Source: a virus
Taxonomy: Duplodnaviria; Caudoviricetes
Virus record (IMG/VR): IMGVR_UViG_3300029288_000134
Location: 22,177 to 86,176 of that record
Length of the DNA stretch: 64,000 nt
Direction: 5' to 3' (one strand)
The translations under genes were made by a program, and so were the position numbers. A model generated the notes under the pieces. The model was not told the origin of the DNA. It worked only from the letters and a program-made list of their open reading frames with translations, and searched no databases. Shown here one piece after another: positions 16,019 to 30,715 of the stretch; the first letter of the stretch is position 1; every line of letters begins with the position of its first letter.

Positions 16019-16205
16019 TGATGGCAAGATAGAATTTGCAGTCCCAGAAGACGTGCTTGGATTTATCTCTTATATAATTAGTGCCCTGGCTTTAAGTGAT
16101 AGCTTCTTGAAACAAGAAGGTTTGCCAAGCGAGACAAATAACAACGTAATGGAGGTTTTGCAATGTGTGCGCAGCGCTATGCAGTCAAAAGCAAGTCAAA
16201 CGTAG
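15990..16205 (+). CDS. hypothetical protein
   Basis: 71-aa ORF overlapping the portal end. Confidence 0.45.
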   Translation: MQEFKIVIHDDGKIEFAVPEDVLGFISYIISALALSDSFLKQEGLPSETNNNVMEVLQCVRSAMQSKASQT

Positions 16206-16447
16206 GTCCGAGAGCTAATACGAATGTCGAGGAAGCTATTGCAGTAAATCTACGCAAGCTAGTTTCGCGTCAATATGGTGATATATCGTTGCGTTCTATT
16301 GAAGCTACCGAAATTGCCATATTGAAAGCAACGCGACAGATTATCAGCGACTTGAATACACTTGCTACACAGCAAGTTTCCGAAAAGGAGAATACGAATG
16401 GCAAGAGGGGAACGATTCGCAAAAACACTGACGAAGCAACTGAGTAA
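16163..16447 (+). CDS. hypothetical protein
   Basis: ORF in the gene chain; start uncertain. Confidence 0.4.
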   Translation: MCAQRYAVKSKSNVGPRANTNVEEAIAVNLRKLVSRQYGDISLRSIEATEIAILKATRQIISDLNTLATQQVSEKENTNGKRGTIRKNTDEATE

Positions 16448-16649
16448 AGAGTGGGTTGTGGAATATCGCACAATGTCTACTCCTGAGATTTATACTGTTG
16501 AACACCACCATAAAGACGGAAAAATATATCGTGCGATGCCACAGGCGGTACCTGAGATTGGTGGCAGGATACTTACTTCTTATGACTGTCCGTCATGTGG
16601 TTGTTACGTATTTGTTGACTGGATTCAAAATCAACTGAAAGGAGGATAG
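16398..16649 (+). CDS. small protein with a CPSCG motif
   Basis: AAGGAG RBS before MARGERF at 16398; YDCPSCGC. Confidence 0.55.
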   Translation: MARGERFAKTLTKQLSKEWVVEYRTMSTPEIYTVEHHHKDGKIYRAMPQAVPEIGGRILTSYDCPSCGCYVFVDWIQNQLKGG

Positions 16650-16653
16650 GGTA

Positions 16654-16740
16654 ATGTGGTTTAATCCTACGCCAGAGCCGCCGCGCCCGACAGAGGGCAC
16701 CGGCAAAGGCAATGGCGACAGTAGCAGTCAACCAAAGTAG
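16654..16740 (+). CDS. 28-aa Pro/Gly/Ser/Thr-rich peptide (MWFNPTPEPPRPTEGTGKGNGDSSSQPK), not in the ORF track
   Basis: AGGAGG RBS 8 nt upstream; fills the gap between two ORFs. Confidence 0.5.
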   Translation: MWFNPTPEPPRPTEGTGKGNGDSSSQPK

Positions 16741-16766
16741 TTCGACAGATCAAAAGGGAGGGTATT

Positions 16767-17006
16767 ATGGCTAAAGTTAATTCTGGTTCGTGGTTCAATT
16801 TGTTTAGTGCAAAAAGTGACCAAGGTCCATCTCAACAAGTTCTTGACCGCAGTCGTATGAAGGCCAAGAAAGTAGAACGTAACCGAGCGCAACGCAAGGC
16901 AACCACATTGCATCACAATTATCTTCATGCTCACGGAAGAGCATCTAATTCATATCACAAGGGAAGTAGTGGAACCGTACATGCTGGACAATCTCGGTGG
17001 AAATAG
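16767..17006 (+). CDS. small basic (K/R/H-rich) protein
   Basis: GGGAGG RBS; strongly basic composition. Confidence 0.6.
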   Translation: MAKVNSGSWFNLFSAKSDQGPSQQVLDRSRMKAKKVERNRAQRKATTLHHNYLHAHGRASNSYHKGSSGTVHAGQSRWK

Positions 17007-17321
17007 TTGATGTCTGAGTCCGAATTCGGCTATATGGAATGGCGCTGCATATTCTGTGGCTCAATAAATCAAGTGCAACCTCTAGAATGTTGCACTCCAT
17101 GTAGCGGATGCGGATGTGACTGGCAAGATGGTGGAGTATGGACACATGGTGCAGTATACTCTAGACCAAATACGATGGCGGCCTATACTCCGCGTCTTGC
17201 CGGTCCAGTATCTACTACAAGAGCAGAACAAGAACAAGATCCATACTTTGAAATGGAGGGATTTGAAATGGCTAAATGCGGCAGTAAGAGTAAGGGAAAA
17301 AAGAAGGGCAAGAAAAAGTGA
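17007..17321 (+). CDS. zinc-ribbon protein with a Lys-rich tail
   Basis: CIFCG...CCTPCSGCG. An internal GGAGG RBS precedes MAKCGSKSKGKKKGKKK at 17268. Confidence 0.55.
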   Translation: MMSESEFGYMEWRCIFCGSINQVQPLECCTPCSGCGCDWQDGGVWTHGAVYSRPNTMAAYTPRLAGPVSTTRAEQEQDPYFEMEGFEMAKCGSKSKGKKKGKKK

Positions 17322-18004
17322 ATATTGTATTAGGGTCAATCTTTCGCAACAGTACATCTTATCTTAATACTTGCTTCGAGCAATTGGCAATGTTAAACGA
17401 TGAACTTGTTTCTCGTGGTCATTCATTTCGGATGGTTTTTGCCGAAGGTGATAGTGTAGATACTACGCGATACGAGCTAGATAAGTTTGCTAAGGGACGC
17501 AGCATTACCATTATTGACAGATCTCACGGTGGTCCATATTGGTGCAGTGCTGATATTCCCGAGAGGTGGGAATCTCTAGCATGGGTGTGCAATGGAGTAT
17601 TAGAGCAGATTCGAATAGACGACAATGCTTTTATCTATGTCGAATCTGATCTTGTCTGGGATACTAATACAATGCTCGCATTGCTGGATGATTTACAAGA
17701 GAAACCAGCAGTAAGTCCATTAGTATTACATGCAGATGGCTGGTTCTGGGATGGAAATGGTTTTCGCATTGATGGACAGGGTTTCGGTGTTTACCCACCA
17801 TATCATCCCAAATATGTAGAGAATGGGTTTACTCAGATGGGAAGCGTTGGGTCGTGTTGTGTAATGTGGTCAGATATTGGACGATTGTGTAGATTTGCAG
17901 GACCGATAAATCACTGGGTTGCCTTCTGTGATGCAATATATCAAAAAGGGTTCTCGGTGTGGTTGGATTCAACTCAAAAGATTATTCATCCTATAAGGAA
18001 GTAA
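17318..18004 (+). CDS. GT-A fold glycosyltransferase (GT2/Anp1-like)
   Basis: FAEGDSVDTT, DxD-like IYVESDLVW, MGSVGSCCV, VWLDSTQKIIHP. Confidence 0.75.
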   Translation: MNIVLGSIFRNSTSYLNTCFEQLAMLNDELVSRGHSFRMVFAEGDSVDTTRYELDKFAKGRSITIIDRSHGGPYWCSADIPERWESLAWVCNGVLEQIRIDDNAFIYVESDLVWDTNTMLALLDDLQEKPAVSPLVLHADGWFWDGNGFRIDGQGFGVYPPYHPKYVENGFTQMGSVGSCCVMWSDIGRLCRFAGPINHWVAFCDAIYQKGFSVWLDSTQKIIHPIRK

Positions 18005-18005
18005 T

Positions 18006-18704
18006 ATGAGACACGTAATCACAATGACTCACTTTAGGCGACCAGAATACAGCAAGCAAGTTCTAGATGCTTTGCGTAATTGTGTCGGGATTGAGAAATA
18101 TACGATTGTGGCGCATGTTGAACCGGGCGGGCCAGCAGAAGTATGGGATACAGTAAAAAGCATTGATTTTGCAGAATGTGTCCCTGTTCTAAATACCAGT
18201 GTGCTCGGAATAAATATGAATACCTTCGAGGCATTGCGGCATGGATTCAGTCTTTCGGATGTTGATTTTGTTATTCATATTGAAGACGATACTCTCCCAT
18301 CAAAAGACGCACTTGCTTATTTCGAATGGGGAGCAGAAACATATAAAGCTGATCCCGAGATATTAAATATTTCAGGATTTGTGAGAACTACACAACATCA
18401 AGAAAATCCATACCTAGTACATCGAATACCTTATTTTTCGAGTTGGGGATGGGGTACATGGCGTGATCGTTGGGAAGAGCCGGGTGGAATGCTCGAAACC
18501 TGGAATGACTATGCGCGGGATGTTCATATTCATCAGGCTATACGCCGTGACAGAAAAGAAATCTCGGCATATCAGTCAAGAATCCAAAATATTGGAAGAC
18601 TGGGAGGTGCAAATATGGGCGCTGATATTTGGGAGCAATGGGCAAATGTTCCTGCTTTTATTGCAGATCTTGAACCAGGACTATACGAAGAGATTTTAAC
18701 ATGA
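18006..18704 (+). CDS. GT-A fold glycosyltransferase
   Basis: HFRRPEYSKQVLDAL, VIHIEDD, FSSWGWGTWRDRW, SRIQNIG. Confidence 0.8.
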   Translation: MRHVITMTHFRRPEYSKQVLDALRNCVGIEKYTIVAHVEPGGPAEVWDTVKSIDFAECVPVLNTSVLGINMNTFEALRHGFSLSDVDFVIHIEDDTLPSKDALAYFEWGAETYKADPEILNISGFVRTTQHQENPYLVHRIPYFSSWGWGTWRDRWEEPGGMLETWNDYARDVHIHQAIRRDRKEISAYQSRIQNIGRLGGANMGADIWEQWANVPAFIADLEPGLYEEILT

Positions 18705-19363
18705 TTAATGTATTAGTTGCAATTCCAATAAATCCAAATATGAGTAGCTACCTTGCTGGAATGGCCAAGGGAAATGTTACAAAATTTACTGATTTTAATC
18801 CAGGCATGAAGTTTGAATATGCTTTTAACGAACGATTCTATACTGGTGACAACCTTCATGGTTCAAGTCGCCATGCGCAAGCAAGAAATGGCATCCTTGA
18901 TATAGTTCTTTGTCCCGAGCATGATTATATTCTATGGATAGACGCGGATATTATTCTATATCCTGCCGACCTACCAAGTCTTTTATATGGCACAGACAAC
19001 AATGCAGTTGTTGCTCCGCTTGTTTTACGTGAAGGCACAGATGCTTTTTATGACTTCAATGGGTTTATAGAAGCTGGAAATAAACGCATGGCCCGAGTAT
19101 GCCCACCTTATTTTGAGCAGAAAGGACCGATAGTCGAGTTAGACTCTGTTGGATGTGTTTATATGATGCCAGCACTTCCATTTCATAATGGCGTTCGTTA
19201 CAAGACAGTAGATGGGCATACTGAGCATTGGTCGGTAATGGAAGAATATCGCAAACAAGGCCATCGCGTAATTTGTAATAAAGACATTGTAGTTATTCAT
19301 GCTGATCTTCAAAAATATGGCGAAGATTGGCACGATAACAAATCACTGGGAGGGAGTAGATGA
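18701..19363 (+). CDS. GT-A fold glycosyltransferase (Anp1/Mnn9-like)
   Basis: ILWIDADI, VELDSVGCVYM, VIHAD. Confidence 0.8.
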   Translation: MINVLVAIPINPNMSSYLAGMAKGNVTKFTDFNPGMKFEYAFNERFYTGDNLHGSSRHAQARNGILDIVLCPEHDYILWIDADIILYPADLPSLLYGTDNNAVVAPLVLREGTDAFYDFNGFIEAGNKRMARVCPPYFEQKGPIVELDSVGCVYMMPALPFHNGVRYKTVDGHTEHWSVMEEYRKQGHRVICNKDIVVIHADLQKYGEDWHDNKSLGGSR

Positions 19364-19869
19364 AAATAGAAATTGGCTCAGGGGAAAATCCTGATCTTGG
19401 CTATGATATTCACACAGATATGCTAGCGCTGCCTCACGTTGAGTGTATTTGCCCTATGGACAAGATACCATATCCAGATGCTACATTTGATGGACTTAGA
19501 GCAAATGATGTACTGGAGCACCAATCCTGGGAGTTGATTAAGCCGACTCTACTAGAATGGAATCGCATACTCAAACCAGGGGCAGATGTTTTCATTCAGG
19601 TTCCTAATGGCAGACATATTATCCTGATGTATGCAGGTGGAATGTTTACAATCGAACTTGCTAATTACTATCTCATGGGAGGTCACACTGAGCGACCTGC
19701 ATATCGTGGCGTTGACAAGAATAATGTTCCTCTCTGGATATGGAATGCACATCATACATTTTTTGATGATGCTTGGCTTAAAAAGAACCTAGAGGAAACA
19801 GGGTTTACTAATATTCAGATTACCGCTAATGAAATCGGCAATCTTGAGTGTAGGTGTAATAAGTCATGA
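19360..19869 (+). CDS. class I SAM-dependent methyltransferase (type 11-like)
   Basis: KIEIGSG, IPYPDATFD, VLEH, EWNRILKPG. Confidence 0.85.
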   Translation: MKIEIGSGENPDLGYDIHTDMLALPHVECICPMDKIPYPDATFDGLRANDVLEHQSWELIKPTLLEWNRILKPGADVFIQVPNGRHIILMYAGGMFTIELANYYLMGGHTERPAYRGVDKNNVPLWIWNAHHTFFDDAWLKKNLEETGFTNIQITANEIGNLECRCNKS

Positions 19870-20639
19870 TAGATCAGGCATATCCCAATGGAAGCCTTAC
19901 TGTTGAACCTGCAATTTGGGAATCAGACGTTCTTGAAGTTAGGGCTGTAAAGATCAAGGATTTTATAGCACCTTCATACAAGGACGCGCTAGAATTACTG
20001 AAACCCATTATTTCGAGGGGTTCGTTTGATTTTATAAGTATTGATTGTTCTAATTTGTCATCGTACTATCTTGTAGCGCTTGAAGATGCCGGATTCCACA
20101 TTGGATCTCATTACACAGATTATCTTATCGAGATAAATGACAATGCTCTAAAGTTGATGGAGTCATATAGAGGTAGGTATAATATACGCCAAATGCGGCC
20201 ATCTGATTCCAGCAGCGTTTCCAAGATAGCATCTGATGCATTCGATACTGGCAGATTTATGGCTGATCCACATTTCCCAGATGGATGGGGAGAGAAATTG
20301 TATGGTGCATGGGGCGAAAACTCCTGCAAGGGCTATGCCAGCGCCGGGGTTGTATGCTTGTCGCAGGACAAGATAATTGGTTTTATGACAGCAAGGGAAC
20401 ATGATTCTGCTCGGGCAGATATGGACCTAATCGCGGTATCCAAAGAGTTTGTTGGAATGGGAGTCGGGGCATCTTTATTGGCAGAGATGATATACAGGCT
20501 AGATGAAAGGTTTATTGATAGTGCAATTGCCAGGACAGAGAGATGTAATCAAGAAATCAACGGCATGTATGAGTTTTTCAGATTCCCAATTATCAATACT
20601 GGAATAGTTATGCATTGGGTTAAGAAAGGATTAAGCTAG
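19866..20639 (+). CDS. GNAT N-acyltransferase, WecD (dTDP-fucosamine acetyltransferase)-like
   Basis: GRFMADPHF...KLYGAWGENSCKG, acyl-CoA motif LIAVSKEFVGMGVGASL, MYEFFRF. Confidence 0.75.
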   Translation: MIDQAYPNGSLTVEPAIWESDVLEVRAVKIKDFIAPSYKDALELLKPIISRGSFDFISIDCSNLSSYYLVALEDAGFHIGSHYTDYLIEINDNALKLMESYRGRYNIRQMRPSDSSSVSKIASDAFDTGRFMADPHFPDGWGEKLYGAWGENSCKGYASAGVVCLSQDKIIGFMTAREHDSARADMDLIAVSKEFVGMGVGASLLAEMIYRLDERFIDSAIARTERCNQEINGMYEFFRFPIINTGIVMHWVKKGLS

Positions 20640-20640
20640 A

Positions 20641-20913
20641 ATGAACAAACAAGAAGCACTAGGTATTATTTACAAAGTAATTGACAGTAGCGAGTGGCCG
20701 CTAGAAAAGAAAGAGGACTCTGTTATATTCGGAAAGAACGCAACACTAGATTCACTTGGCGTTGTATCGTTCATTATTGACGTAGAGATAGAGTTAAGAG
20801 CAGCAGGGTCGCCGCTGATATTGGCAAACGATAAGGCTATGTCGCGTTACACGAGTCCATTCAGAAATGTTGGCGTACTTGCTGATTATATCGTGGAGTT
20901 GACCAATGATTGA
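20641..20913 (+). CDS. acyl carrier protein
   Basis: 90 aa; phosphopantetheine site LDSLGVVSFI. Confidence 0.85.
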   Translation: MNKQEALGIIYKVIDSSEWPLEKKEDSVIFGKNATLDSLGVVSFIIDVEIELRAAGSPLILANDKAMSRYTSPFRNVGVLADYIVELTND

Positions 20914-21607
20914 TACCCCTGTTATGCTTATTACGGGTGCAACTAGCGGAATAGGAAAGTTTCTTGCTGAAGGTTATTCTTTCACAGAGAGATACAAGGT
21001 AATTGGTTGTGGCAGAAGAGATCCTATTGATCTTGGAAGTGTTCGCTACTATCAGCTAGATGTTTCTGATGAGCAAGCTGTGGTGGATATGCTTAGTGAC
21101 GCATATTCGTTGTACGGCAGACTAGATATTGTAATTAACAACGCTGGCGTTGCTTCCATGAACCACTTTCTAACTACGCCGATCAGTAGTTTCGACAAGG
21201 TGTTTGAGACTAACGTCAAGGGAACGTTTCTGGTGAGCCGAGAGGCTGCGAAGCTGATGAAATCACATGGCGGCAGGATAGTCAACTTCACATCAATAGC
21301 AGTCCCTTTTTCCCTAACAGGAGAGTCTGTTTATACAGCATCCAAGACAGCGATTGAGTCTCTCACAAAAGTAATGGCCCGAGAGCTTGCACCGTTAGGA
21401 ATTACCGTAAATGCCGTTGGTCCATGCCCTATAGCAACCGACTTACTAAAGAATGTACCGGAAGACAAGATTGATACCATTCTGAGCAGCCTTGCAATTC
21501 ATGAGTATGGCATGGAAGCAGATGTACTTAACGTTATAGATTTCTTTATCAATCCAAAAAGCAATATGATTACTGGTCAAGTCATCTATTTAGGTGGTGC
21601 ATTTTGA
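20906..21607 (+). CDS. SDR oxidoreductase, FabG-like 3-oxoacyl-ACP reductase
   Basis: ITGATSGIG, INNAG, YTASK, ITVNAVGP, ITGQVIYLGG. Confidence 0.88.
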   Translation: MIDTPVMLITGATSGIGKFLAEGYSFTERYKVIGCGRRDPIDLGSVRYYQLDVSDEQAVVDMLSDAYSLYGRLDIVINNAGVASMNHFLTTPISSFDKVFETNVKGTFLVSREAAKLMKSHGGRIVNFTSIAVPFSLTGESVYTASKTAIESLTKVMARELAPLGITVNAVGPCPIATDLLKNVPEDKIDTILSSLAIHEYGMEADVLNVIDFFINPKSNMITGQVIYLGGAF

Positions 21608-22863
21608 GTATAGAATGGTTTCTTGATCGTATGCGCACTTTTGGCAACCGTGATGCGATTATTCTACAGGACCGAGATTGTGTTGCTACTTATAATGACC
21701 TGCTCGACGAAATAGATAGACAAAAACCTGCCCCGTTATCAAGTTTTGCTATGGATGACCCCGTATCTGACATTGCACTCATGCTGTCTGCAATAAACAA
21801 GGGCTATGTAGTTGTTCCGTTGCCTAAGTTTGACACGAGGCGCGATAGAAAAATAGAACTTGTTGCAGGCTCTCTTGATTTTATTGATGAGGTAGTGCTG
21901 CCAGGAAAACCTGCGCTTGTAGTGTTCACAAGTGGGTCAACGGGCGATGAAAAGGCGATTCTGTTTGCAGCAGAACAAATGATGGAACGTTATAGACAAC
22001 TGTATCCACCGAGGACTAGGTTGTCATTTTTGCAATTGGATCATCTCGGCGGGATTCATACTGTATTATACACCTTGTCTAACGGCGGAACCATTGTTGT
22101 TCCAAGGGATAGAAATCCACAAACTATTTGCGAGGCAATAGAGAAGTATAAAATAGAGGCGCTTCCTGTAACACCGACATTTCTAAATATACTTCTTGCG
22201 TCTGAGGCATATAAGGAATACGATCTTTCTTCTTTAAGAGTTGTTACATATGGAACTGAGGTTATGCCCGAGTCTGTACTGAAAAGAATAAGCAGGGAAT
22301 TGCCATACGTTAAGTTTAAGCAAACTTATGGATTATCAGAGCTAGGTGTAATGCACGTAAAGTCCAGGGACTCAGTTTCTACTTGGATCAAGATTACAGA
22401 TGATAAATACGAAGCAAAAATACAGGATGGGACATTATGGGTGCGTACAGAATTTGCTATGAAGGCGTATCTTAATGCACCTAATCCATTTGATCACGAG
22501 GGTTGGTTTAATACACACGATAAAGTTGAGTTTGATGGCGAGTGGATGAGGATACTTGGCAGAGACACGGACATCATTAACGTTGGTGGATTAAAAGTGT
22601 ACCCAGTCGAGGTCGAGAACGTGTTATTAGATATGCCTGGAGTTATTGATGCATTGGTTGATGGTATATCAAATCCATTCACTGGAAACGCCGTTGCCGT
22701 AACATTGCAAATAGAAGAGCGATTTGACGCAACTATTATCAAGAAAAGAGTCAGGGATTTTTGCAAAGGGAAACTAGAGTCATACAAAATCCCGGTATTA
22801 GTAGATGTTACAACTGTGCCACTTACTGGACCTAGATGTAAAAAGATAAGGACTGTTGTGTAG
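21604..22863 (+). CDS. adenylate-forming (AMP-binding) acyl-ACP/CoA ligase
   Basis: VFTSGSTGDEKA, QTYGLSE, GWFNTHD, GRDTDIINVGG.KVYP.EVE, YKIP. Confidence 0.88.
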   Translation: MSIEWFLDRMRTFGNRDAIILQDRDCVATYNDLLDEIDRQKPAPLSSFAMDDPVSDIALMLSAINKGYVVVPLPKFDTRRDRKIELVAGSLDFIDEVVLPGKPALVVFTSGSTGDEKAILFAAEQMMERYRQLYPPRTRLSFLQLDHLGGIHTVLYTLSNGGTIVVPRDRNPQTICEAIEKYKIEALPVTPTFLNILLASEAYKEYDLSSLRVVTYGTEVMPESVLKRISRELPYVKFKQTYGLSELGVMHVKSRDSVSTWIKITDDKYEAKIQDGTLWVRTEFAMKAYLNAPNPFDHEGWFNTHDKVEFDGEWMRILGRDTDIINVGGLKVYPVEVENVLLDMPGVIDALVDGISNPFTGNAVAVTLQIEERFDATIIKKRVRDFCKGKLESYKIPVLVDVTTVPLTGPRCKKIRTVV

Positions 22864-23570
22864 TGCAAACACTAGGAGCAGTAATAGTAAGCGAACATGC
22901 AGATTTACTAGAATCTGTATTGCTATGGATGAGAGATACCGAGTTATTTGATCAGATAGTAGCAGTTGCAGATGTTAAGGGAGGGCCTGATACTGAACGT
23001 GTTGCGCATGAACTTGCTGATATATCTACCGTGATGAACGTTCCTCATCAGGGCGCGGTATTGGATGCTGCTTTTCTACTCTGTAACACAGACTGGGTTT
23101 TTCGCATGGATGATGACGAAAGAATGGGAACGCTTTTTGTGGAAGGTGTGCGCAATCTTATAGAGCGAGATATGCATGACGTATATCATTTTCCGCGCTA
23201 TTGGCTTTGGCCAGACACAACACATTATATTAGTAATGGATGTTGGGTATATAACGAGGATAGACAAACTAGACTTTGGAAGAGAGGTTGTGTAGGATCG
23301 CAAGGTTCAATTGACCCAGGGGCCGTTCACGTTGACCTGGTTCCGAAGCCAAATTCAAGAACTGCTGTAAATGCACTAGACTGGCATATCTTTCATTATG
23401 TCCTGCTTACTCCTTATGAAGAAAGATTGAAAAAGGTGGCTCGATATGCACAAATAGAAAATGTCCCGCTAGGGGATTATAGAAAAAGAATAGGCCAGTT
23501 CTACTTACCTGAAGATTCTAATAACGTTGAGGTTGGCCATTGTACCGAATGGCCTTGGGGTATATTATGA
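22863..23570 (+). CDS. GT-A fold glycosyltransferase (GT2, WaaE-like)
   Basis: DWVFRMDDDE, QTRLWK, VHVDL, HIFHY; GTG start. Confidence 0.75.
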   Translation: MQTLGAVIVSEHADLLESVLLWMRDTELFDQIVAVADVKGGPDTERVAHELADISTVMNVPHQGAVLDAAFLLCNTDWVFRMDDDERMGTLFVEGVRNLIERDMHDVYHFPRYWLWPDTTHYISNGCWVYNEDRQTRLWKRGCVGSQGSIDPGAVHVDLVPKPNSRTAVNALDWHIFHYVLLTPYEERLKKVARYAQIENVPLGDYRKRIGQFYLPEDSNNVEVGHCTEWPWGIL

Positions 23571-24082
23571 TAGATACAAGCAATGCACTAAAAATAGATG
23601 GGTGGATGTTTGACGATGAACTAGAGTGGTTAGCGCAACAAGCACAAAAGCATCAGAATATTCTAGAAATAGGTTCGTGGAAGGGTCGTTCTACTCGCGC
23701 ATTAGGAGACAATACCCCTGGAAGAGTTTGGGCGGTTGATTATTGGCTAGAACATGATTGCGAAATGAGACAGTTCCTTGAGAATTTGTCGGATCTGATT
23801 ATTGCCGAAAGGGTAATAGTGATGCGCACAACCAGTAATAACGTAACTACTATGTTGCACAATACGCACCGCTCCTTCTTTGATATGATATTTTTAGATG
23901 GCGACCACTGTTACGAATCTGTAAAATCCGACATCTCAAATTGTATTCCGTTATTATCCCCTGGAGGCATATTGTGTGGACATGATTATTCTGTTGCATG
24001 GGAGGGGGTGATGCGGGCAGTTGAAGAGATTCTGCCGAACTTCTATTTACACAATACTATCTGGTACAAGGAGATCAAATGA
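23567..24082 (+). CDS. class I SAM-dependent methyltransferase (Methyltransf_24-like)
   Basis: ILEIGSWKGRST, DMIFLDGDHCYE, LSPGGILCGHDY; likely start MIDTSNAL. Confidence 0.85.
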   Translation: MIDTSNALKIDGWMFDDELEWLAQQAQKHQNILEIGSWKGRSTRALGDNTPGRVWAVDYWLEHDCEMRQFLENLSDLIIAERVIVMRTTSNNVTTMLHNTHRSFFDMIFLDGDHCYESVKSDISNCIPLLSPGGILCGHDYSVAWEGVMRAVEEILPNFYLHNTIWYKEIK

Positions 24083-25062
24083 GGGTATTAGTTACTGGAA
24101 ATCTTGGTTATCTAGGTAGCGTTGCAACGAGTATGCTGCACGAGAACAATCACGATGTTCTAGGAATTGATATGGATATATGTGCTATTTATCCCGAACA
24201 CGAATATGATATTCGCGTTATTGATTGGGACAAATATCTGCCATATGTCGATGCTGTTGTTCATCTAGCGGGTGTATCTAATGATCCCGCTTGTGAACTT
24301 GATGACTCGCTTACTTACGATATAAATAATGCGGCAACGATTGTGTTGATAGAGGCGGTAAATAGATGCCCCAATATCAAGAAGTTCGTGTTTGCTAGTT
24401 CTGCAAGCGTGTACGGCTCTAGTGAGGAAGTATCAACAGAGTCATCAAGGCTATCCCCAATTTCTGCTTATGCACTTAGCAAGCGTATGGGGGAACAACG
24501 GATACTTGGCTATCTAGACGGGCGCATTCGACCAACCATACTAAGACTCGGGACATTATTTGGGAAGTCTATCTATAGGCAAAGGTTCGATCTAGCAATT
24601 AACTTAATGGTCAAGGATGCCGTTCTTAACAATGAGATTAAGGTATATGGTGGCGATCAATGGAGGCCGTTTCTTCACGTTAATGATGCCGCGAGTGCAA
24701 TTTTATTTGCATTAACAGATAACAGGATAGTAGATTCAAGTATATATAATGTGGCAATATCCAATATCAAAATAAGCGATCTTGCCGTACTTATTAAAAA
24801 CAGACTAGATTCTATGGGCTATCACGGCATTAATATAAATACATTTTCGCTTGATGATCAGCGTAATTATCGCCTTGATTGTTCACTAATAAAGAGTATT
24901 GGATTTGATCCTTTGCACACTATTGATATGGGGATATGGGAAATGTCTTTACTAATAAAAGATATGGTTACAGGTGGGTACAATCTGGAAGATTCACGAT
25001 ACTACACAATAAAACTATGGAAAAAGTGGGTGGAGAAATATGGAACGAATCCCGTTCTCTAA
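24079..25062 (+). CDS. NAD-dependent NDP-sugar epimerase/dehydratase (extended SDR)
   Basis: VLVTGNLGYLG, VVHLAG, FASSASVYG, YALSK, LRLGTLFG, WRPFLHV.D. Confidence 0.9.
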   Translation: MRVLVTGNLGYLGSVATSMLHENNHDVLGIDMDICAIYPEHEYDIRVIDWDKYLPYVDAVVHLAGVSNDPACELDDSLTYDINNAATIVLIEAVNRCPNIKKFVFASSASVYGSSEEVSTESSRLSPISAYALSKRMGEQRILGYLDGRIRPTILRLGTLFGKSIYRQRFDLAINLMVKDAVLNNEIKVYGGDQWRPFLHVNDAASAILFALTDNRIVDSSIYNVAISNIKISDLAVLIKNRLDSMGYHGININTFSLDDQRNYRLDCSLIKSIGFDPLHTIDMGIWEMSLLIKDMVTGGYNLEDSRYYTIKLWKKWVEKYGTNPVL

Positions 25063-26152
25063 ACCATCTATAAATCAAGATGACATAGACGCCGTATCTG
25101 ATGTCATGCGCTCGGGATGGCTGACAATAGGTAACGAAGTAGCTTCTTTCGAGCAAGAGCTTGCAGAACGACTTGGTGTCGAGTATGTGATATGCGTAGA
25201 CTCATGTACGTCTGCCCTGACCCTAGCTATAGAATCATACATGCCATTTTCTGGTAAGATATGTATTCCAGCATTGTCATTTATAGCAACAGCAAACACT
25301 GTAGTAAAAGCTGGCGGCGAGAATAACTTAGTGTTTTGTGATGTTGGTTGTGATGGCAATATTAACCCTAACAAAATACCAAAAGATGCGGAGATTGTTA
25401 TTCCGGTTCACTATGCTGGCCAACCATGTAATATGGATGATATTGTTTTTGGAAGAACAGTGATAGAGGATGCCGCACATGCATTCGGCGCAACGTACAA
25501 CAACGCCATAGTTGGCGCTGCTAGTTACCGTGATTATCAAACTACATGCTGTTTTTCATTTTACCCCACCAAGCCAATGACTACAGGGGAAGGCGGGTGT
25601 ATTACTACTAATTATGAACGAATAGCTAATTATGCAAGAAGCATGTCGTTGCACGGACTAAGTGCTGGTCATGCGAATAGGTACGAGAGATCAAGCAGAA
25701 ATCATCCAGTCGTTGAGCAACGTCCTGGTTACAAAATGAATATGACTAACATCGCAGCGGCCCTTGGGAGACAACAGCTTAAACGACTCGATTACATGCT
25801 TGCGGCGCGTAGAAAAATAGTTGCACGTTACCAGGACGAATTATGGAGCACGGTAGAGTGTCTGCCATTTGCTGACTTCACAGGTCACGCATGGCATATC
25901 TTTGTAATCCTAGTAGATAACCGAGATGATGTTGCACAGAAACTTGACAGTCTCGGGATTGGAACTGGTGTGCATTATAATCCACCGTTACATCTTCATC
26001 CTTGGTATCAGAAAAAATATGGGCACGTTACAGGAGATTTTCCTGTTGCGGAAAGGATTGCAAAACGATGTCTTAGCTTGCCACTATTCCCAGATATGAC
26101 AGATCAACAAGTAGAACGAGTAATTAAAGCAGTAAAATCAATTGTTGGCTAA
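25040..26152 (+). CDS. DegT/DnrJ/EryC1/StrS PLP-dependent sugar aminotransferase
   Basis: SGWLTIG, PVHYAGQPC, IEDAAHAFG, FSFYPTKPMTTGEGG (PLP Lys), GYKMNM, LSLPLFP. Confidence 0.93.
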   Translation: MERIPFSKPSINQDDIDAVSDVMRSGWLTIGNEVASFEQELAERLGVEYVICVDSCTSALTLAIESYMPFSGKICIPALSFIATANTVVKAGGENNLVFCDVGCDGNINPNKIPKDAEIVIPVHYAGQPCNMDDIVFGRTVIEDAAHAFGATYNNAIVGAASYRDYQTTCCFSFYPTKPMTTGEGGCITTNYERIANYARSMSLHGLSAGHANRYERSSRNHPVVEQRPGYKMNMTNIAAALGRQQLKRLDYMLAARRKIVARYQDELWSTVECLPFADFTGHAWHIFVILVDNRDDVAQKLDSLGIGTGVHYNPPLHLHPWYQKKYGHVTGDFPVAERIAKRCLSLPLFPDMTDQQVERVIKAVKSIVG

Positions 26153-26200
26153 GTATAATTGTTCTGACAACGATTATACTTTCAATGCAAAAAGTATAAT
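26151..26200 (+). promoter_or_regulatory. possible internal promoter/operator with three aagtataat-type motifs
   Basis: aagtataat (26151-59), inverted copy attatactt (26173-81), aagtataat (26192-200). Followed by a GGGAGG RBS. Confidence 0.45.
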
Positions 26201-26213
26201 TTAGGGAGGACAC

Positions 26214-27083
26214 ATGAAGGTATATGCCGAGATAGAAGAAGTATTAGGCATTGGATTACATCGTGTACAGTATGAAATCAAGCATCACGCACCGCCTGGA
26301 ATTGAGTTTGTTGACAACATAGAAGAAGCAGACTTGCAGATTGTTCCCGTAATAGGGCTTGGTAGCCTTGAGTTCATCAAGCATCCAAGTCATGTACTGT
26401 TACAGTATTGTTACATGACCGCCGAGAGACAGGATCCCGAGTTCTGGTTGCCCATCTTCCAAGAAGCGAAAATGGTATTCAGCTATTACGATCTTCCGAG
26501 CTATGTAGGATCTAGCGATTTCAACTTCTTGCACTCTCCGCTCGGAGTTGATATGGAAGTGTTTCAAGATCGCAAGTTGTCAATAGTTCCAAGGGACTTT
26601 ATTGTTGCAACTTCTGGATACGAGCCATTTGGCGAGGCTATTAAGGAATGCTATCAAGCTGCGCGTATCTTAAAGAAAAAGATATTTCACCTTGGTCCAG
26701 GTCTAGATCATGATAGATTCCAGCCGTGGGTAGGCGCTGGCTTTGTTGCGCACAGCGGTATTAGTGACACTGATCTTGCTCGGATGTATAGTAGATCTAA
26801 GTATGTTTCTGGCCTACGATTCGGAGAGGGTTTTGAGTTGCCTGTAATTGAGGGATTTGCTTGTGGTGCTCGACCTATTTGTTTTGACTTGCCCGTATAT
26901 CGTCAGTGGTTTAATGACTTCGCTGTATTCGTTCCTCATATAAGAGACGATGATCTGATGTATGCATTGGTAGAGATATTTAATACAGATAGACCAGTAA
27001 CGGCGGAAGAGTTGCAAATATGCAAAGAGCGTTTTAGTTGGGATGTGGTAATACAAAAATTCTGGGAGAGGGCGCTAGAATAA
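26214..27083 (+). CDS. GT-B fold glycosyltransferase (GT4-like)
   Basis: HSPLGVD, EGFELPVIEGFACG, FSWD. Confidence 0.82.
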   Translation: MKVYAEIEEVLGIGLHRVQYEIKHHAPPGIEFVDNIEEADLQIVPVIGLGSLEFIKHPSHVLLQYCYMTAERQDPEFWLPIFQEAKMVFSYYDLPSYVGSSDFNFLHSPLGVDMEVFQDRKLSIVPRDFIVATSGYEPFGEAIKECYQAARILKKKIFHLGPGLDHDRFQPWVGAGFVAHSGISDTDLARMYSRSKYVSGLRFGEGFELPVIEGFACGARPICFDLPVYRQWFNDFAVFVPHIRDDDLMYALVEIFNTDRPVTAEELQICKERFSWDVVIQKFWERALE

Positions 27084-28402
27084 TGTCTAAGAAAATCAAA
27101 GTATTGTGTTGGTCTGACAGTCCCGCTGTCACAACAGGGTTTGGTGTTGTGGCAAAAGAATTATATAAAGGTTTTCATGACGCGGGAATGGAAGTTGTTG
27201 CAATGGGTACCCTTGCTACGCCGCTAGTTGACAACAGTAATTTGCCATATCGCGTGATCAATGCCTGTCAACATGATCCAGAGATGTATGAACTTGCTCC
27301 TGCGATTGTTAGCATGGAGAAGCCTGACGTTGTATTTATTCTTGCAGATCCAGGTACGGCATATAACCGAATAGGAAAGTTGTTTTCCGATACACCTGTT
27401 GTGGCATACTTTCCCATTGAGGGATCGCCCGTATCTACACGTTATCTAGATTTCATTCGAGATGTAATACATCGTGGTGGATCAGCGGTAACATATACGA
27501 AATGGGGAGCGGATACAATATCGCTGTTCTCAGGTGGAATACTCAAGATTCCGTACATCTACCACGGAGTAGATCATGCTGGCTGGAAACCCATAGAGCC
27601 TGAATTACGTAAACATATGCGTAAAGTTGTGGGATGGGACGACAAGTTTGTGGTTACTTTTCGTGGTCGTAACAAGGGCGTAAAAATGCAGTTGTCTCTG
27701 ATGCACGCAATGCACCAGCTAGTTCACGTTAAGAAACGAGATGACATCTTGCTATATCTGCATTGTAAGCCGTTCGAAGAATATCTAATGCAGGGCTGGA
27801 ATTTACTAGAGTGGAAAAAGAATCTTGGTCTATCAGAGAATCTCTTATTTCCACAGGATATGTATAATCAGCTTGATGGTGTTCCGTTCGACAGTAACAA
27901 GATTACCGATTGGAATAATGTTAAAGTAAGTGATGATCCCAAGGTGCGCGGATTGAATTTCATTGATATGGATTTATGTGAGAGAACAGCACTTGCTGAT
28001 CTATTTATTGACCCTGCTTCAATAGAGGGATTTGGATTGCCCGCGCTTGAAGCTGCTGCGTGTGGTGTACCAGTAGCTACAGTAAATGACTCGGGAGTGA
28101 GAAGCGAGATATTTGGCGATAATGCATACTTCATGGAACCCATTACTGAAACTCGCTGGCACACGGGTGCTGCTTTGAAGATTGTGGCTGAGGATACTAT
28201 CGGTAGCACGATTGAGCTTTTCTCTAAAAACGAGAAGTTGTGCAAGGAGTATGGTGAGCTTGGCCTAGAAAGAAGCAAGGATTTCAGATGGGATAACGCA
28301 CGAGAATCCATGACTAAGTTAGTAGAGCAAGCGTCAGGGAAGAATACCGGACAGGCAATGTGGTTTAATAACCTATTGGGAGGGATGAGTGGGAATCAAT
28401 AG
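27083..28402 (+). CDS. GT-B fold glycosyltransferase (GT4-like)
   Basis: TTGFGVVAKEL, IYHGVD, EGFGLPALEAAACG, FRWD. TAATG coupling suggests a start at 27083. Confidence 0.88.
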   Translation: MSKKIKVLCWSDSPAVTTGFGVVAKELYKGFHDAGMEVVAMGTLATPLVDNSNLPYRVINACQHDPEMYELAPAIVSMEKPDVVFILADPGTAYNRIGKLFSDTPVVAYFPIEGSPVSTRYLDFIRDVIHRGGSAVTYTKWGADTISLFSGGILKIPYIYHGVDHAGWKPIEPELRKHMRKVVGWDDKFVVTFRGRNKGVKMQLSLMHAMHQLVHVKKRDDILLYLHCKPFEEYLMQGWNLLEWKKNLGLSENLLFPQDMYNQLDGVPFDSNKITDWNNVKVSDDPKVRGLNFIDMDLCERTALADLFIDPASIEGFGLPALEAAACGVPVATVNDSGVRSEIFGDNAYFMEPITETRWHTGAALKIVAEDTIGSTIELFSKNEKLCKEYGELGLERSKDFRWDNARESMTKLVEQASGKNTGQAMWFNNLLGGMSGNQ

Positions 28403-28493
28403 TGATGTAAAAGTGTTTGTTGTTATTGCTCTTCTATTTATCTTTTTATCTTCGTGCTCGTGCATGGTTGCACCAATCACAAGGGGTATGTAG
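28389..28493 (+). CDS. possible 34-aa lipoprotein-like peptide (MGINSDVKVFVVIALLFIFLSSCSCMVAPITRGM)
   Basis: Translated by hand; GGAGG upstream of GTG; hydrophobic stretch then LSSC lipobox-like motif. Confidence 0.35.
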   Translation: MGINSDVKVFVVIALLFIFLSSCSCMVAPITRGM

Positions 28494-28687
28494 TGGATAA
28501 TTTCGAGTTCGCTGTACAAGTGGAAAGTATAATGAAGCTGCTTTTATCTAATGACGTGCAGCGACAACTTGGCACCATGCGTAAAGGTAGAATAGAAATC
28601 GTTATTAAGGACGGGATAGCTCAGTCTATATCCGTAACATCTATGCATCTTTTAGAGAATCTACGCGATTCACTTGACAATTCTTAA
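28493..28687 (+). CDS. small hypothetical protein (DUF2292/YezD-like pattern)
   Basis: GRIEIVIKDGIAQSI; GTG start overlapping the upstream TAG. Confidence 0.4.
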   Translation: MDNFEFAVQVESIMKLLLSNDVQRQLGTMRKGRIEIVIKDGIAQSISVTSMHLLENLRDSLDNS

Positions 28688-28701
28688 ATATAGTATATAG
28701 T
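28674..28701 (+). promoter_or_regulatory. sigma70-type promoter upstream of the head operon
   Basis: TTGACA-16 bp-TATAGT. Confidence 0.6.
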
Positions 28702-28842: not shown

Positions 28843-30312
28843 ATGCCAGAAGTAACTGAGAACTATGTGCATATACCAGTTCGTGGAGATGATCAATTTG
28901 TAGAAGGTTCAATTAGAACAATAGTCATCTCGGCCAGTCAGGGAATAAGGGCCCTGATCGGAAAGTTGAAATCGGATCCACAAGGTTCCACTAAGATCAA
29001 AACATACTTGTTCTCAACTGCGAAGTGGAACATGGAAAAAGCTAAAGCCTGGGTATCCAAGCACAAGCTAGAGGACGTGAATATGGATCAAAACATAGAA
29101 GATATTGTAGTTATGGAAGATGTTTCATACGATGAACTTCAAAATGAAATAATCGCAGCCTGGGAAGAGGGTCAATATACAAGTAATCCTGTTCCCCAAA
29201 TGAGAGGCGCATATGTAAGTAAAGTATATAAGGATTATATTATAACTCACCTTGAAGGCAAGCTATACAAGGTTGCCTATAGTAAAAAGGGAGACAAGAT
29301 AGAATTCAGCGAACCAGAAGAAGTGGAGATGAAAGTGGAGTATGTTAAGGCGGATATGCCCTTTGATTATGTTGCCTTGATCGAGCTAGAGGAAGATGGT
29401 TCCCCTGTTCAGTGGATACAAATGCACGAAGAGGGGGAATGGGAGCATCCAGAATATGGAACGCTTTCCATGACCAAGAGCAAGATCAATGCAATGATCA
29501 AGAACTTCAACGAAAAACTACTTGGATATGAACCTTCAGGGAACTTGCATCATGACAAGAGTCCTGCTCAGGGATGGGTGAAGGAGCTTGCTTATAAGAA
29601 CAAGAAACTGATGGGAAAAGTCGAGTGGACAAAGGAGGGGATTGCAAATATCCGCGATAAACTATACCGATACATTTCCCCAGAATACAAGGAAGATCAC
29701 GAGGGGAAAGGGGCCTTGTTTGTAGGATTCGCACTCACCAACAAGCCATTCCTTCCAGGCCAAAAGCCACTGGTATGTTCAATGGATGTACAAACTCAGT
29801 TGTTTGAATCAAGATTAGCTACTAAGAAGGAGTTACAAATGCCCGAGAAAAATACTGTCGTAGAAGATCCGAAGATTACTACGCCGGATCCAGTTGTGCC
29901 TGTTGTACCAGTTGTTACTCTTAGCGCCGAAGACATTGCGGTTTTAAAGATGGAAGCTGCAAAGGTCAAGGTTCTCGAAGAGCAACTTGTCAAGATGGAG
30001 TCTGATGCAAAGAAAGCAGAGATCGCTGCAATGTGCGATAAGGCTGCTAGTCGTGGCGTTGATCCGTTCACGATTAACAGCGTCAGCGCAATGCTTGTGG
30101 CTCTGCAACGTAACGGTGAAGATGTGGTCATGCTCGAAGAGGGCGCTGCTCCCGTTAATATGTATCGTGCTCTATCTCAATTTTTGCAGAACGTTACTGG
30201 GCCAATCAAAACCGAAGAGCAGACTCAGATCGACAACGAGAAGCCGAATCTGAATCTTAGCGACGAGGCTGATTACACCCAAGAAGACGTTGATTCGTTC
30301 ATGAAGGTTTAA
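28843..30312 (+). CDS. prohead protease/scaffold (Mu GpI-like) with N-terminal extension
   Basis: WIQMHEEGEWEHP.YG, GNLHH, AQGWV, VEWT, YRYISPEY, GFALTNKPF; acidic coiled-coil C-terminus. Confidence 0.78.
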   Translation: MPEVTENYVHIPVRGDDQFVEGSIRTIVISASQGIRALIGKLKSDPQGSTKIKTYLFSTAKWNMEKAKAWVSKHKLEDVNMDQNIEDIVVMEDVSYDELQNEIIAAWEEGQYTSNPVPQMRGAYVSKVYKDYIITHLEGKLYKVAYSKKGDKIEFSEPEEVEMKVEYVKADMPFDYVALIELEEDGSPVQWIQMHEEGEWEHPEYGTLSMTKSKINAMIKNFNEKLLGYEPSGNLHHDKSPAQGWVKELAYKNKKLMGKVEWTKEGIANIRDKLYRYISPEYKEDHEGKGALFVGFALTNKPFLPGQKPLVCSMDVQTQLFESRLATKKELQMPEKNTVVEDPKITTPDPVVPVVPVVTLSAEDIAVLKMEAAKVKVLEEQLVKMESDAKKAEIAAMCDKAASRGVDPFTINSVSAMLVALQRNGEDVVMLEEGAAPVNMYRALSQFLQNVTGPIKTEEQTQIDNEKPNLNLSDEADYTQEDVDSFMKV

Positions 30313-30325
30313 GGAGGATATAACA

Positions 30326-30715
30326 ATGCCGTACCTGAAAAGTGGGCCAAGCACGCGACGACGTGCATGGTTGGATAGTCTAGCGGCTGTCCGTAGTGAT
30401 AGTGACACTCTCAGTGGAGACATCGGCCTTACCGCTGATGCATTTGGAGATAAGTGGGTATACCCCGGTGTAGTTTTGGACTATGTTGATGCTGGTACGT
30501 ACACTGGCAAATTGATGGTTCGCGCTTCTGGGTCAACTTATACCGCCAAGGGCATTATGATGGGAACCGAGCCAGTAAACATGAAGCTCGGGGACAAGTT
30601 GGTTGGTTACTATACCCATGCCCGAGTACGAGAAGATCTTGTTGAATGCGAGGGGTCACTTGGTAGCGTTGCTGCTGGTGTAAAGACTTCGCTCGCTAAT
30701 ATCGAGTGGATATAA
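30326..30715 (+). CDS. probable head decoration/cement protein
   Basis: 129 aa, between scaffold and major capsid (the lambda gpD position). Confidence 0.55.
   Translation: MPYLKSGPSTRRRAWLDSLAAVRSDSDTLSGDIGLTADAFGDKWVYPGVVLDYVDAGTYTGKLMVRASGSTYTAKGIMMGTEPVNMKLGDKLVGYYTHARVREDLVECEGSLGSVAAGVKTSLANIEWI

Follow-up and report, generated by a model that had tools for sequence, protein, structure and literature searches.

Gene content of the block

The 64,000-nt window analyzed here covers bases 22177-86176 of an 86,176-bp tailed-phage contig in IMG/VR (IMGVR_UViG_3300029288_000134; estimated completeness 72%), and our subject is a block of genes for glycan synthesis that lies within its head genes. 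Exactly 14 plus-strand open reading frames (ORFs) span positions 17318-28402 between the portal and the prohead protease genes, with neighbors overlapping by 1-46 nt or being separated by gaps of 1-61 nt (Table 1; genes are referred to by their start positions). Functions were assigned via Pfam, NCBIfam, PHROGs, a protein atlas, and transitive homology, with PHROGs providing no family for eight out of the ten proteins tried. The block comprises four glycosyltransferases (GTs) of the GT-A and two of the GT-B type, two S-adenosylmethionine (SAM) methyltransferases, a short-chain dehydrogenase/reductase (SDR) of the nucleoside diphosphate (NDP)-sugar type, a DegT aminotransferase, a WecD-like GNAT, a putative acyl carrier protein (ACP), a ketoreductase, and an acyl-AMP ligase. 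An original prediction, made by a model from the letters alone, had proposed 14 co-oriented, overlapping or abutting genes with these enzyme classes; the ORF list as well as the profile, atlas, and homology searches agree with it.

The block is embedded in a 43-kb plus-strand late block extending from the large terminase gene (12753) to ~55.5 kb. This late block is bracketed by switches in the sign of the GC skew at ~12 kb and ~56 kb, and it is flanked by minus-strand replication and nucleotide-metabolism genes (ribonucleotide reductase (RNR), DnaB, dTMP kinase, SNF2 helicase, and Rad52-like proteins). None of the 14 block proteins has a membrane segment (no hydrophobic 19-mer above a Kyte-Doolittle value of 1.5), and no protein on the contig has more than three hydrophobic segments. 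Judged by their sequences, all 14 block proteins are soluble.

Table 1. Genes of the glycan block, followed by the neighboring head genes, with the evidence for each assignment
Feature	Position	Strand	Evidence
GT-A, phage CAP59/Anp1/GT25-like, E-S-D acidic motif	17318-18004	+	no Pfam match
GT-A, GNT-I-like, DxD at residue 85	18006-18704	+	PF03071, 3.5e-6, above cut-off
GT-A, Anp1/GT62-like, DxD at residue 81	18701-19363	+	PF03452, 2.2e-10
Small SAM-dependent methyltransferase	19360-19869	+	Methyltransf_11, 1.7e-5, above cut-off
WecD-like two-domain GNAT, putative N-acyltransferase for NDP-4-amino sugar	19866-20639	+	Acetyltransf_1, 4.3e-7
Putative acyl carrier protein, 90 aa, LDSLG phosphopantetheine site	20641-20913	+	homology to small protein of bacterial trio
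FabG-like ketoreductase (SDR)	20906-21607	+	adh_short 1.4e-43; KR 9.3e-10; TIGR01830 4.4e-43, under cut-off
Acyl-AMP ligase (adenylation enzyme), short form of ~420 aa	21604-22863	+	AMP-binding, 1.7e-29
GT-A (GT2), DDD at residue 83	22863-23570	+	GT2 3.6e-4, below cut-off
Methyltransf_24 (O-methyltransferase-like) SAM methyltransferase	23540-24082	+	PF13578, 1.7e-17
NDP-sugar SDR	24079-25062	+	Epimerase, 9.1e-44; best PDB match 6vo6, 4.1e-20
DegT-family PLP sugar aminotransferase (ArnB/PseC-like)	25040-26152	+	PF01041, 8e-93, positions 2-359 of 360
Short GT-B-type enzyme, 289 aa, EX7E at residue 205	26214-27083	+	weak TIGR04047 and phrog_2170 matches
Core GT4-like GT-B (g082)	27038-28402	+	Glycos_transf_1 8e-11; phrog_2170 3.7e-18
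Large terminase TerL	12753-14348	+	Terminase_6N/6C; start of plus-strand late block
Mu-type portal, 556 aa	14348-16018	+	PF06074, 1.4e-18; relatives ~30% identical
Four or five small ORFs	15990-17321	+	without Pfam family; same gene calls in independent contig
77-aa ORF	28454-28687	+	without family (PHROGs, Pfam)
Mu-I-type prohead protease/scaffold (Mu-like_Pro)	28843-30312	+	PF10123, 1.7e-17
129-aa gpD/SHP-like head decoration (cement) protein, candidate	30326-30715	+	weak fold matches and position
Major capsid protein (lambda gpE family, Phage_cap_E)	30726-31859	+	PF03864, 6.9e-11; relatives 33-55% identical

Glycosyltransferases

The last gene of the block encodes the GT that we refer to as the core GT, for which 27083 is the likely true start (439 aa). 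Its model, based on a 66-sequence alignment, reached a predicted local distance difference test (pLDDT) value of 93 with a GT-B fold, and Foldseek gave a probability of 1.00 to GT4 enzymes (B736L, BshA, PimB', MshA). The best PDB match was B736L of chlorovirus NY-2A (3oy2, E 1.4e-19; 18% sequence identity), four orders of magnitude ahead of the generic GT4 enzymes BshA, PimB', and MshA. B736L is a virus-encoded retaining GT-B that has been discussed with regard to capsid-glycan synthesis (PMC4691112). Among predicted viral structures, the best match was an “RfaG” GT of an uncultured member of the Caudovirales. The EX7E motif of the core GT reads EGFGLPALE at residue 330, with E338 being invariant in the 66 sequences; two Rossmann domains with a C-terminal EX7E characterize the modeled protein as a predicted retaining GT-B of family GT4. 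Within a set of 1.84 billion representatives, the family accounts for 108 clusters at E ≤ 1e-30, and many of its members are C-terminal domains of 600-1360-aa proteins.

Among the remaining GTs, the GT-A enzyme 17318 is 24% identical (4.6e-10) to a protein of relative G001 (L021:18047-18778) that matches GT2 (1.4e-8), CAP59, and Anp1, and its nearest atlas clusters are viral GT-A proteins (score 0.97-0.99). For 22863, 29 of the 30 nearest atlas clusters are viral GT2 proteins (score 0.97), and the structural comparison gave TM values of 0.72-0.80 to GT2. The product of 18701 weakly matches Mnn9 (3zf8) in the PDB, where sequence searches with three GT-A proteins returned nothing usable. The short GT-B-type enzyme 26214 is 35% identical (1.2e-41) to a second G001 protein (L021:17239-18069), which matches Glycos_transf_1.

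Sugar-tailoring and acylation enzymes

The original prediction had listed gene 24079 as an NDP-sugar epimerase/dehydratase, of which the family assignment stands and the 4,6-dehydratase function does not. The 4,6-dehydratases RmlB and GMD carry a Thr-Asp-Glu motif (T-D-E-V-Y-G) upstream of YxxxK. In 24079 this region reads S-S-A-S-V-Y-G, as in GalE-like enzymes, followed by Y-A-L-S-K, and the Asp-Glu pair is absent; the best PDB match is likewise no dehydratase but an enzyme that we take to be the GDP-heptose C4 dehydrogenase Cj1427 of C. jejuni. By its motifs, 24079 is therefore probably a 4-epimerase or a C4-dehydrogenase.

Gene 25040 combines a full-length pyridoxal phosphate (PLP) fold with the Schiff-base lysine (context Y-P-T-K), which places its predicted product among the DegT/DnrJ/EryC1 aminotransferases. 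Matches to PseC (1.5e-86) and ArnB (5.8e-75) remained under the equivalog cut-offs of NCBIfam, as did WecE, and comparison with the ArnB structure 1mdo gave 3.2e-54. The C4 aminotransferases ArnB and PseC being its nearest relatives, we infer an amination at C4. The GNAT 19866 matches NF008212 (dTDP-4-amino-4,6-dideoxygalactose acyltransferase) at 1.6e-11 over residues 12-216, with 44.5 bits against a cut-off of 219, and weakly resembles WecD (2fs5). Since it stays under the WecD equivalog cut-off and shares the general two-domain GNAT architecture only, we term it WecD-like rather than WecD.

Genes 20641, 20906, and 21604 form a trio of putative ACP, ketoreductase, and ligase. The putative ACP has no Pfam or NCBIfam (PP-binding) match; it is 34-44% identical to the small protein preceding an SDR-ligase pair in bacterial loci, with the LDSLG site being invariant. 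The ketoreductase contains the TGxxxGxG, NAG, and YxxxK motifs. In the ligase, which shares 47% identity with a Vicinamibacterales protein along its entire length, the P-loop and A8/A10 motifs are retained. The trio recurs, in unchanged order and with identical 4-nt overlaps, in envelope-glycan neighborhoods of Vicinamibacterales and Anaerolinea (L098:5984-8347, L099:5969-8365), where it adjoins genes for GT2, PMT_2-like, and acyltransferase proteins. On these sequence grounds, it is a captured bacterial unit, orthologous to the Vicinamibacterales/Anaerolineae trio. The bacterial version consists of an ACP-like protein of ~110 aa, an SDR of 234 aa, and an acyl-AMP ligase of ~450 aa; its ligase has more than 5,600 relatives at E ≤ 1e-20, and the trio is widespread and apparently uncharacterized. 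The likely product of the tailoring and acylation enzymes, as predicted from their sequences, is an NDP-4-(hydroxyacyl)amido sugar.

A conserved core GT and variable tailoring cassettes in related phages

Single-protein locus searches of IMG/VR with the portal and the core GT gave no matches, and a word-index portal search found only six relatives, all on short contigs of no use for synteny. With an alignment-based portal search, 80 IMG/VR loci were obtained, whose portals share 20-32% identity with that of the window phage, and more contigs were found via the capsid protein. Most of the portal-related loci are more distant, have the protease gene 0.4-2.6 kb after the portal gene, and contain no GT. 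We defined the clade of the window phage by a capsid protein 27-55% identical to its own together with the conserved 129-aa protein encoded at 30326. In six out of six other clade genomes whose sequence could be assessed (L092, L095, L097, G001, G002, and G003), an orthologue of the core GT (26-37% identical) is encoded upstream of the protease, either free-standing or as the C-terminal domain of a fusion. With the window phage included, the core GT thus precedes the protease gene in all seven assessable genomes. Contig L091 was left out, as it ends too near the protease gene for a judgment on the core GT. For two contigs available without DNA, a 657-aa methyltransferase plus GT-B protein and a 432-aa protein were found at the core-GT position.

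The genes accompanying the core GT differ from genome to genome. After the portal gene, G001 (85.7 kb) encodes a GT4, a CBM96-like protein, a short GT-B, and a GT-A. G002 (94 kb, complete) has five methyltransferases, a sulfatase-like enzyme, a GT-B, and a 1064-aa GT2-GT4 fusion, and G003 (73.8 kb, with terminal repeats) has three methyltransferases, a sulfotransferase, a sulfatase-like enzyme, a DUF5662 protein, and a 1090-aa GT2-GT4 fusion. Further contigs found via the capsid protein encode, upstream of the protease, 626-657-aa methyltransferase-GT fusions or several methyltransferases including a TylC3-type NDP-sugar C-methyltransferase. Small methyltransferases akin to 19360 fill the cassettes of the relatives, and a homologue of methyltransferase 23540 is present in that of G002. 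For 10 of the 14 block genes (all except 17318, 23540, 26214, and 27038), no homologue could be detected among the other clade members sampled, and most accessory genes have bacterial proteins as their nearest relatives, e.g., the ligase with 43-48% identity. Based on the sequence comparison, we take the core GT to belong, by vertical inheritance, to the core of the head module, and the remaining 13 genes to be accessory and specific to the lineage.

The sulfatase-like enzymes of the G003 (L088:6291-14963) and G002 cassettes (L028:13010-20480 and L090:1228-5863) belong to the alkaline-phosphatase superfamily, with the GT2-GT4 fusions of both measuring ~1,070 aa. The gene content of these two cassettes suggests sulfated, heavily methylated glycans. 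In G001 (L089:4018-10633), ~6.5 kb of small opposite-strand genes lie between the glycan cassette and the genes for protease and capsid protein, so the portal-protease interval tolerates other cargo as well. Two distant members of the core-GT family (L100, L101) lie on phage-like or unclear contigs with other glycan genes and without visible head genes; the family as a whole is thus not strictly head-linked.

Regarding the hosts, a scan of a contig database for prophage relatives returned only clade member G002 itself (L103, MEWP01000063.1, 94,133 bp), which is deposited in a metagenome-assembled genome of candidate division Zixibacteria bacterium RBG_16_53_22 from aquifer sediment. This is either a binning artefact or, weakly, a hint at the hosts of the clade. 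The host of the window phage is probably not an actinobacterium.

Proposed virion glycosylation system

We consider it reasonably probable, judging from sequence and comparison, that the block is a phage-encoded virion glycosylation system expressed together with the late head genes. The core GT would be the anchor transferase acting on a head protein, with the major capsid protein and the 129-aa decoration protein candidate, both encoded just downstream, as candidate acceptors, and the other 13 genes would set the character of the glycan. The SDR 24079 would oxidize or epimerize a host-supplied NDP-hexose at C4, and the aminotransferase 25040 would yield the NDP-4-amino sugar. The ligase 21604 may charge the ACP 20641 with a carboxylic acid, whose acyl group the ketoreductase 20906 would reduce to a hydroxyacyl group, and the GNAT 19866 could then move this group onto the amino function of the sugar. 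The four GT-A enzymes and the short GT-B would extend the chain, and the two SAM methyltransferases would O-methylate the glycan. All steps would take place in the cytoplasm, on soluble proteins, and without a lipid carrier. The sequences themselves show the gene content, the intact motifs, the soluble character of the proteins, the place of the core GT beside the head genes throughout the clade, and the lack of partners that the alternative functions would need. The acceptor, the order of steps, the identities of sugar and acyl group, and the benefit, namely shielding or diversifying the particle surface, are what we infer from this gene set.

Several lines of evidence support this proposal. 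The block is translationally coupled throughout within the co-oriented late block, and the same interval of the relatives holds different glycan-tailoring genes (three to five methyltransferases, a sulfotransferase, sulfatase-like enzymes, and GT fusions). The core GT is kept upstream of the protease gene in every assessable clade genome, and its pairwise identities cover the same range as those of the capsid protein and correlate with them (Mantel r 0.886, exact p 0.002). Moreover, mycobacteriophage Corndog (cluster O; NC_004685) shows the identical order of portal (gp34, 1.7e-43), methyltransferase (gp35), GTs (gp36-38), S78 prohead protease (gp39), and capsid protein (gp41), and its enzymes are likewise small, soluble, and GT-A-rich, without a flippase. 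PMC12363180, with reference to Freeman et al. 2023, names Che8, Corndog, and Myrna as phages in which virion proteins were found to be glycosylated and describes gp38 of Corndog as essential; the glycans are reported on capsid and tail-tube subunits in the accounts given of the same study (PMC12363180, PMC12619734). With soluble GTs and methyltransferases inside a head-gene operon, the block corresponds in gene content and position to a cassette of the Corndog/Che8 type, in which a methyltransferase may be present or absent. Corndog differs in having 4 genes instead of 14, to which the window phage adds the SDR, the aminotransferase, the ACP-dependent N-acylation branch, and two GT-B enzymes. 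The head modules differ as well, that of the window phage combining a Mu-type portal and protease with a lambda-E-type capsid protein and a gpD-like decoration protein candidate.

The 129-aa protein is kept in all clade members, and its gene lies between the protease/scaffold and the gpE-type capsid genes, which is the position of gpD in lambda. Its model has a pLDDT of 65 (core near 80) and reached a Foldseek E-value of 0.1. The comparison with SHP of phage 21 (1td0) gave a VIA Z of 6.8, with all top 23 rows being phage capsid accessory proteins including lambda gpD; nearly all of the weak fold matches are decoration or cement proteins of phage heads (SHP, gpD, P74-26, TW1, and Pam3). A decoration protein and possible acceptor is a plausible interpretation of this model.

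A number of observations weigh against virion glycosylation. The glycan on a virion protein is deduced from gene content, and the choice of acceptor is a guess. An alignment of the capsid proteins revealed no obvious Ser/Thr-rich tail of the mycobacteriophage kind. BLASTP of the 14 block proteins against Corndog gp35-38 gave no match at E < 0.05, so that the parallel is one of layout and enzyme class only. The Mantel correlation between core GT and capsid protein is driven largely by the one close pair L092/L095 (Spearman rho only 0.54). The portal-protease interval could be merely a permissive site for cargo insertion, and large GT/sugar clusters of cyanophages are usually read as serving host-surface modification (PMC12801897). 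In addition, absences in a contig ~72% complete are weak evidence. Finally, the pathway contains no nucleotidyltransferase, no phosphopantetheinyl transferase, and no clear 4-keto-forming step; the former two must be supplied by the host. The “full” precursor pathway of the original prediction therefore does not hold, a 4,6-dehydratase signature being absent along with the nucleotidyltransferase. For its central claim of virion glycosylation, a prediction from genes, comparative support comes from the core GT, the cassettes of the relatives, the Corndog layout, and the lack of DNA-modification partners.

Going beyond the single phage, a two-tier virion “glycocalyx” is conceivable, which we put forward tentatively as a possible but rather doubtful generalization. 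A vertically inherited GT4-like enzyme dedicated to a head protein, either the capsid or the gpD-like decoration protein candidate, would be combined with a tailoring cassette that is hypervariable and exchanged horizontally, giving the particle its own counterpart of an O-antigen serotype locus. In the present case, the cassette would include a virus-encoded, ACP-dependent N-acylation of an amino sugar.

Alternative functions of the block

The strongest rival to virion glycosylation is a cytoplasmic tailoring of host envelope intermediates, which we regard as unlikely although deserving serious attention. At the cytoplasmic face, the substrates of the soluble enzymes would be lipid-linked host intermediates of O-antigen, capsule, or teichoic acid, and the host surface would be altered as a result, e.g., blocking superinfection or freeing progeny from debris. 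Indeed, the repertoire of DegT aminotransferase, WecD-like GNAT, SDR, and GT2/GT4 enzymes is that of O-antigen and capsule loci, and the trio stems from bacterial loci that also encode GT2, PMT_2-like, and acyltransferase proteins. TarP of S. aureus prophages is an example of a soluble phage GT-A that modifies wall teichoic acid with no phage flippase accompanying it. Among the classic constituents of O-antigens are N-acylated 4-amino sugars, as in the tetronate-acylated perosamine of V. cholerae O1 (PMC3441752), and the cyanophage clusters with up to 13 GTs have been interpreted in this sense (PMC12801897). Against this, the contig encodes no initiating phosphoglycosyl transferase, flippase, polymerase, O-antigen-type ligase, or polytopic membrane protein. 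The block resides in the late head operon rather than in an early or moron position, and the core GT stays beside the head genes across a clade that probably infects hosts with different envelopes. The original prediction had argued from the missing flippase, polymerase, and membrane GT against seroconversion; indeed none was found, but their absence taken alone leaves room for a cytoplasmic tailoring of host envelope polymers. A tyrosine integrase was found neither in the window contig nor in the near-complete relatives G001-G003 (serine integrases were not searched), which makes lysogenic seroconversion unlikely. With the membrane GT, flippase, and polymerase also lacking from the contig (~72% complete), the block does not fit seroconversion of the Gtr or Wzx/Wzy type.

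Improbable, in our view, is another soluble target, i.e., a host protein, a signaling nucleotide, or a small molecule in counter-defense or takeover, or a free glycoconjugate. All block enzymes being soluble fits such a role, as do the distant family members in phage-like contigs that are not visibly beside head genes. The core GT also matches PF20706, “GT4 in conflict systems,” over a short stretch (residues 318-355, 3.5e-7), but this stretch spans only the generic nucleotide-sugar-binding turn. Furthermore, its place beside the portal, protease, and capsid genes is kept in every assessable clade member, and the late-operon placement is unlike that of takeover functions, which are usually early.

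We attach still less weight to DNA hypermodification, by which the GTs and tailoring enzymes would decorate modified phage bases with a complex glycan as protection from restriction. Phage GTs glycosylating 5-hydroxymethylcytosine or 5-hydroxymethyluracil are well known, with diverse glycans reported (bioRxiv 10.1101/2023.12.21.572611), and a sugar cluster with an “acyl carrier protein reductase” in Bacillus phage SP-15 is thought to serve a hypermodified base (PMC5977210). The window contig encodes a dTMP kinase and an RNR, and the SP-15 GT-B and a cyanophage “DNA alpha-GT” are among the fold matches, though far down at ranks 18 and 47. These precedents come with a hydroxymethylase or a methyltransferase-TET pair, however, and TET/JBP (PF12851), ThyA-type hydroxymethylase (PF00303), C5 cytosine methyltransferase (PF00145), and ThyX (PF02511) are all absent from the window contig as far as it is complete (~72%). 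TET/JBP and ThyA are also absent from three relatives at least 90% complete that share the core GT, so the partner enzymes held in the original prediction to point to DNA were found neither here nor there. In addition, the cluster is located in the head module, away from the opposite-strand replication and nucleotide-metabolism genes. To our knowledge, six GTs and an N-acyl-amino-sugar branch far exceed the needs of any known DNA glycan.

An assembly chimera or a recent, decaying host-derived insertion without phage function is barely credible: the bacterial affinity of most accessory genes and the lack of clade homologues for most of the block would fit it, but the relatives carry functionally analogous cassettes in the same interval, and assembly, composition, and gene integrity all speak against it. 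A 70.9-kb ENA contig is 100% identical over 21,260 bp covering the whole block and both junctions, which is moderate support only, as it was possibly built from the same reads. The GC content of the block (0.420) is close to that of the non-structural genes (0.427; structural genes 0.455), and its relative codon use correlates with that of the other gene sets (r 0.93-0.96) as strongly as these do with one another. There are no stops or frameshifts in the tightly coupled genes, and every enzyme checked retains its catalytic motifs (GxxGxxG/YxxxK, PLP lysine, P-loop, A8/A10, LDSLG, DxD, EX7E). A chimeric or decaying insertion, which the original prediction had also raised as a possibility, was rejected on these grounds.

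Comparison with other viral and bacterial glycan systems

Besides Corndog, Pontimonas phage phiPsal1 offers a parallel among tailed phages, with GT1-methyltransferase-GT2 genes directly after the capsid gene and a GT1 that is a detectable homologue of the core GT. The chloroviruses (NY-2A B736L; the GT-methyltransferase A64R and the three-GT protein A111/114R of PBCV-1) share the principle of virus-encoded, cytoplasmic, and lipid-carrier-independent synthesis of methylated glycans (PMC4691112, PMC7826918), and the GT-methyltransferase and multi-GT fusions of the clade relatives resemble A64R and A111/114R. In contrast, chloroviruses are eukaryotic giant viruses whose glycan genes are scattered rather than placed in a head operon, with no acyl-carrier branch reported.

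The original prediction considered a pathway of this size in a tailed phage as not described, which does not stand in respect to size and precursor genes. Many GTs (up to 13) as well as NDP-sugar epimerases are encoded by the tailed cyanomyoviruses S-SCSM2R, S-SCSM1, and P-SSM2, S-SCSM2R having 22 cell-wall-type genes including 13 GTs (PMC12801897), so cluster size alone is not unprecedented. Tetrasphaera phage TJE1 encodes a nucleotidyltransferase, an epimerase, a methyltransferase, and a GT. Different from the window phage, the cyanomyovirus genes lie outside the head operon, are read as host-surface or DNA modification, and are not listed with an aminotransferase-GNAT-ACP branch (PMC12801897).

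For the acylation branch, the closest logic is found in V. cholerae O1, where perosamine is N-acylated with tetronate by a five-gene wbe set (PMC3441752). The likeness is one of logic: in both cases, a C4 aminotransferase acts first, and the amino group is then N-acylated with an acid other than acetate, which an ATP-dependent ligase activates. The wbe tetronate set includes an ACP and the AMP-ligase-type WbeL. The V. cholerae glycan, however, is lipid-linked and exported, and the phage trio is orthologous to the Vicinamibacterales/Anaerolineae trio instead.

Taken together, the portal-methyltransferase/GT-protease layout is already known from Corndog, with the block of the window phage being larger and chemically richer. 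New, as it appears, are the N-acylation branch with an acyl carrier and the presence of a core GT throughout a clade whose tailoring genes are swapped. In the literature, we found no description of such a core GT, none of a phage cassette with an aminotransferase-GNAT-ACP-ketoreductase-ligase acylation branch, and no precedent for a virus-encoded ACP-dependent N-acylation of a virion-destined amino sugar.

The experimental demonstration of phage-encoded virion glycosylation is confined to a few mycobacteriophages, in which recognition by antibodies is altered. The present locus and its relatives suggest that it reaches a clade of 70-95 kb sediment and aquifer phages that is unrelated to these and widespread in the environment, and for which the conserved core transferase could act as a marker gene. 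The glycan is possibly elaborate, with an amino sugar, a hydroxyacyl amide, and O-methyl groups suggested here and sulfate in the relatives. If virion glycosylation holds true, the block would provide a tractable set of soluble enzymes for protein glycoengineering and a new approach to the variation or shielding of phage surfaces, and the uncharacterized bacterial ACP-ketoreductase-ligase trio would gain a functional context.

Flanking genes and further features

Among 50,697 phage records, Megablast detected no match to the 19-kb head region, and the window phage has no close cultured relative. A tRNA search found none. A scan for promoters and terminators yielded no more sites overall than in shuffled sequences and hence does not define a transcription unit. 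The best sigma-70-like site of the region (TTGACA-16-TATAGT, 11/12 match, 28674-28701) lies between the cluster and the protease gene and could be an internal promoter for the head genes.

Upstream of the block, the 556-aa portal is followed by small ORFs, whereas the portals of the relatives are fused to a long C-terminal extension (907-1,598 aa; L021:9695-12418, L028:9698-12490, L088:1343-6139) with weak DUF6647/DUF6782 metallopeptidase-like matches. Two of the small ORFs directly 5' of the cluster (16362-16649 and 17007-17321) are Cys-rich and zinc-ribbon-like, the latter (104 aa) overlapping the first GT gene by 4 nt and being translationally coupled to the cluster. A 164-aa zinc-ribbon protein is encoded inside the cassette of G001 (L021:14271-14765). 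Outside the late block, both the large subunit of the class I/II-type RNR (5015-9403, minus strand) and the DnaB helicase (57917-60400, minus strand) contain an intein with a LAGLIDADG endonuclease (Intein_splicing and LAGLIDADG_3).

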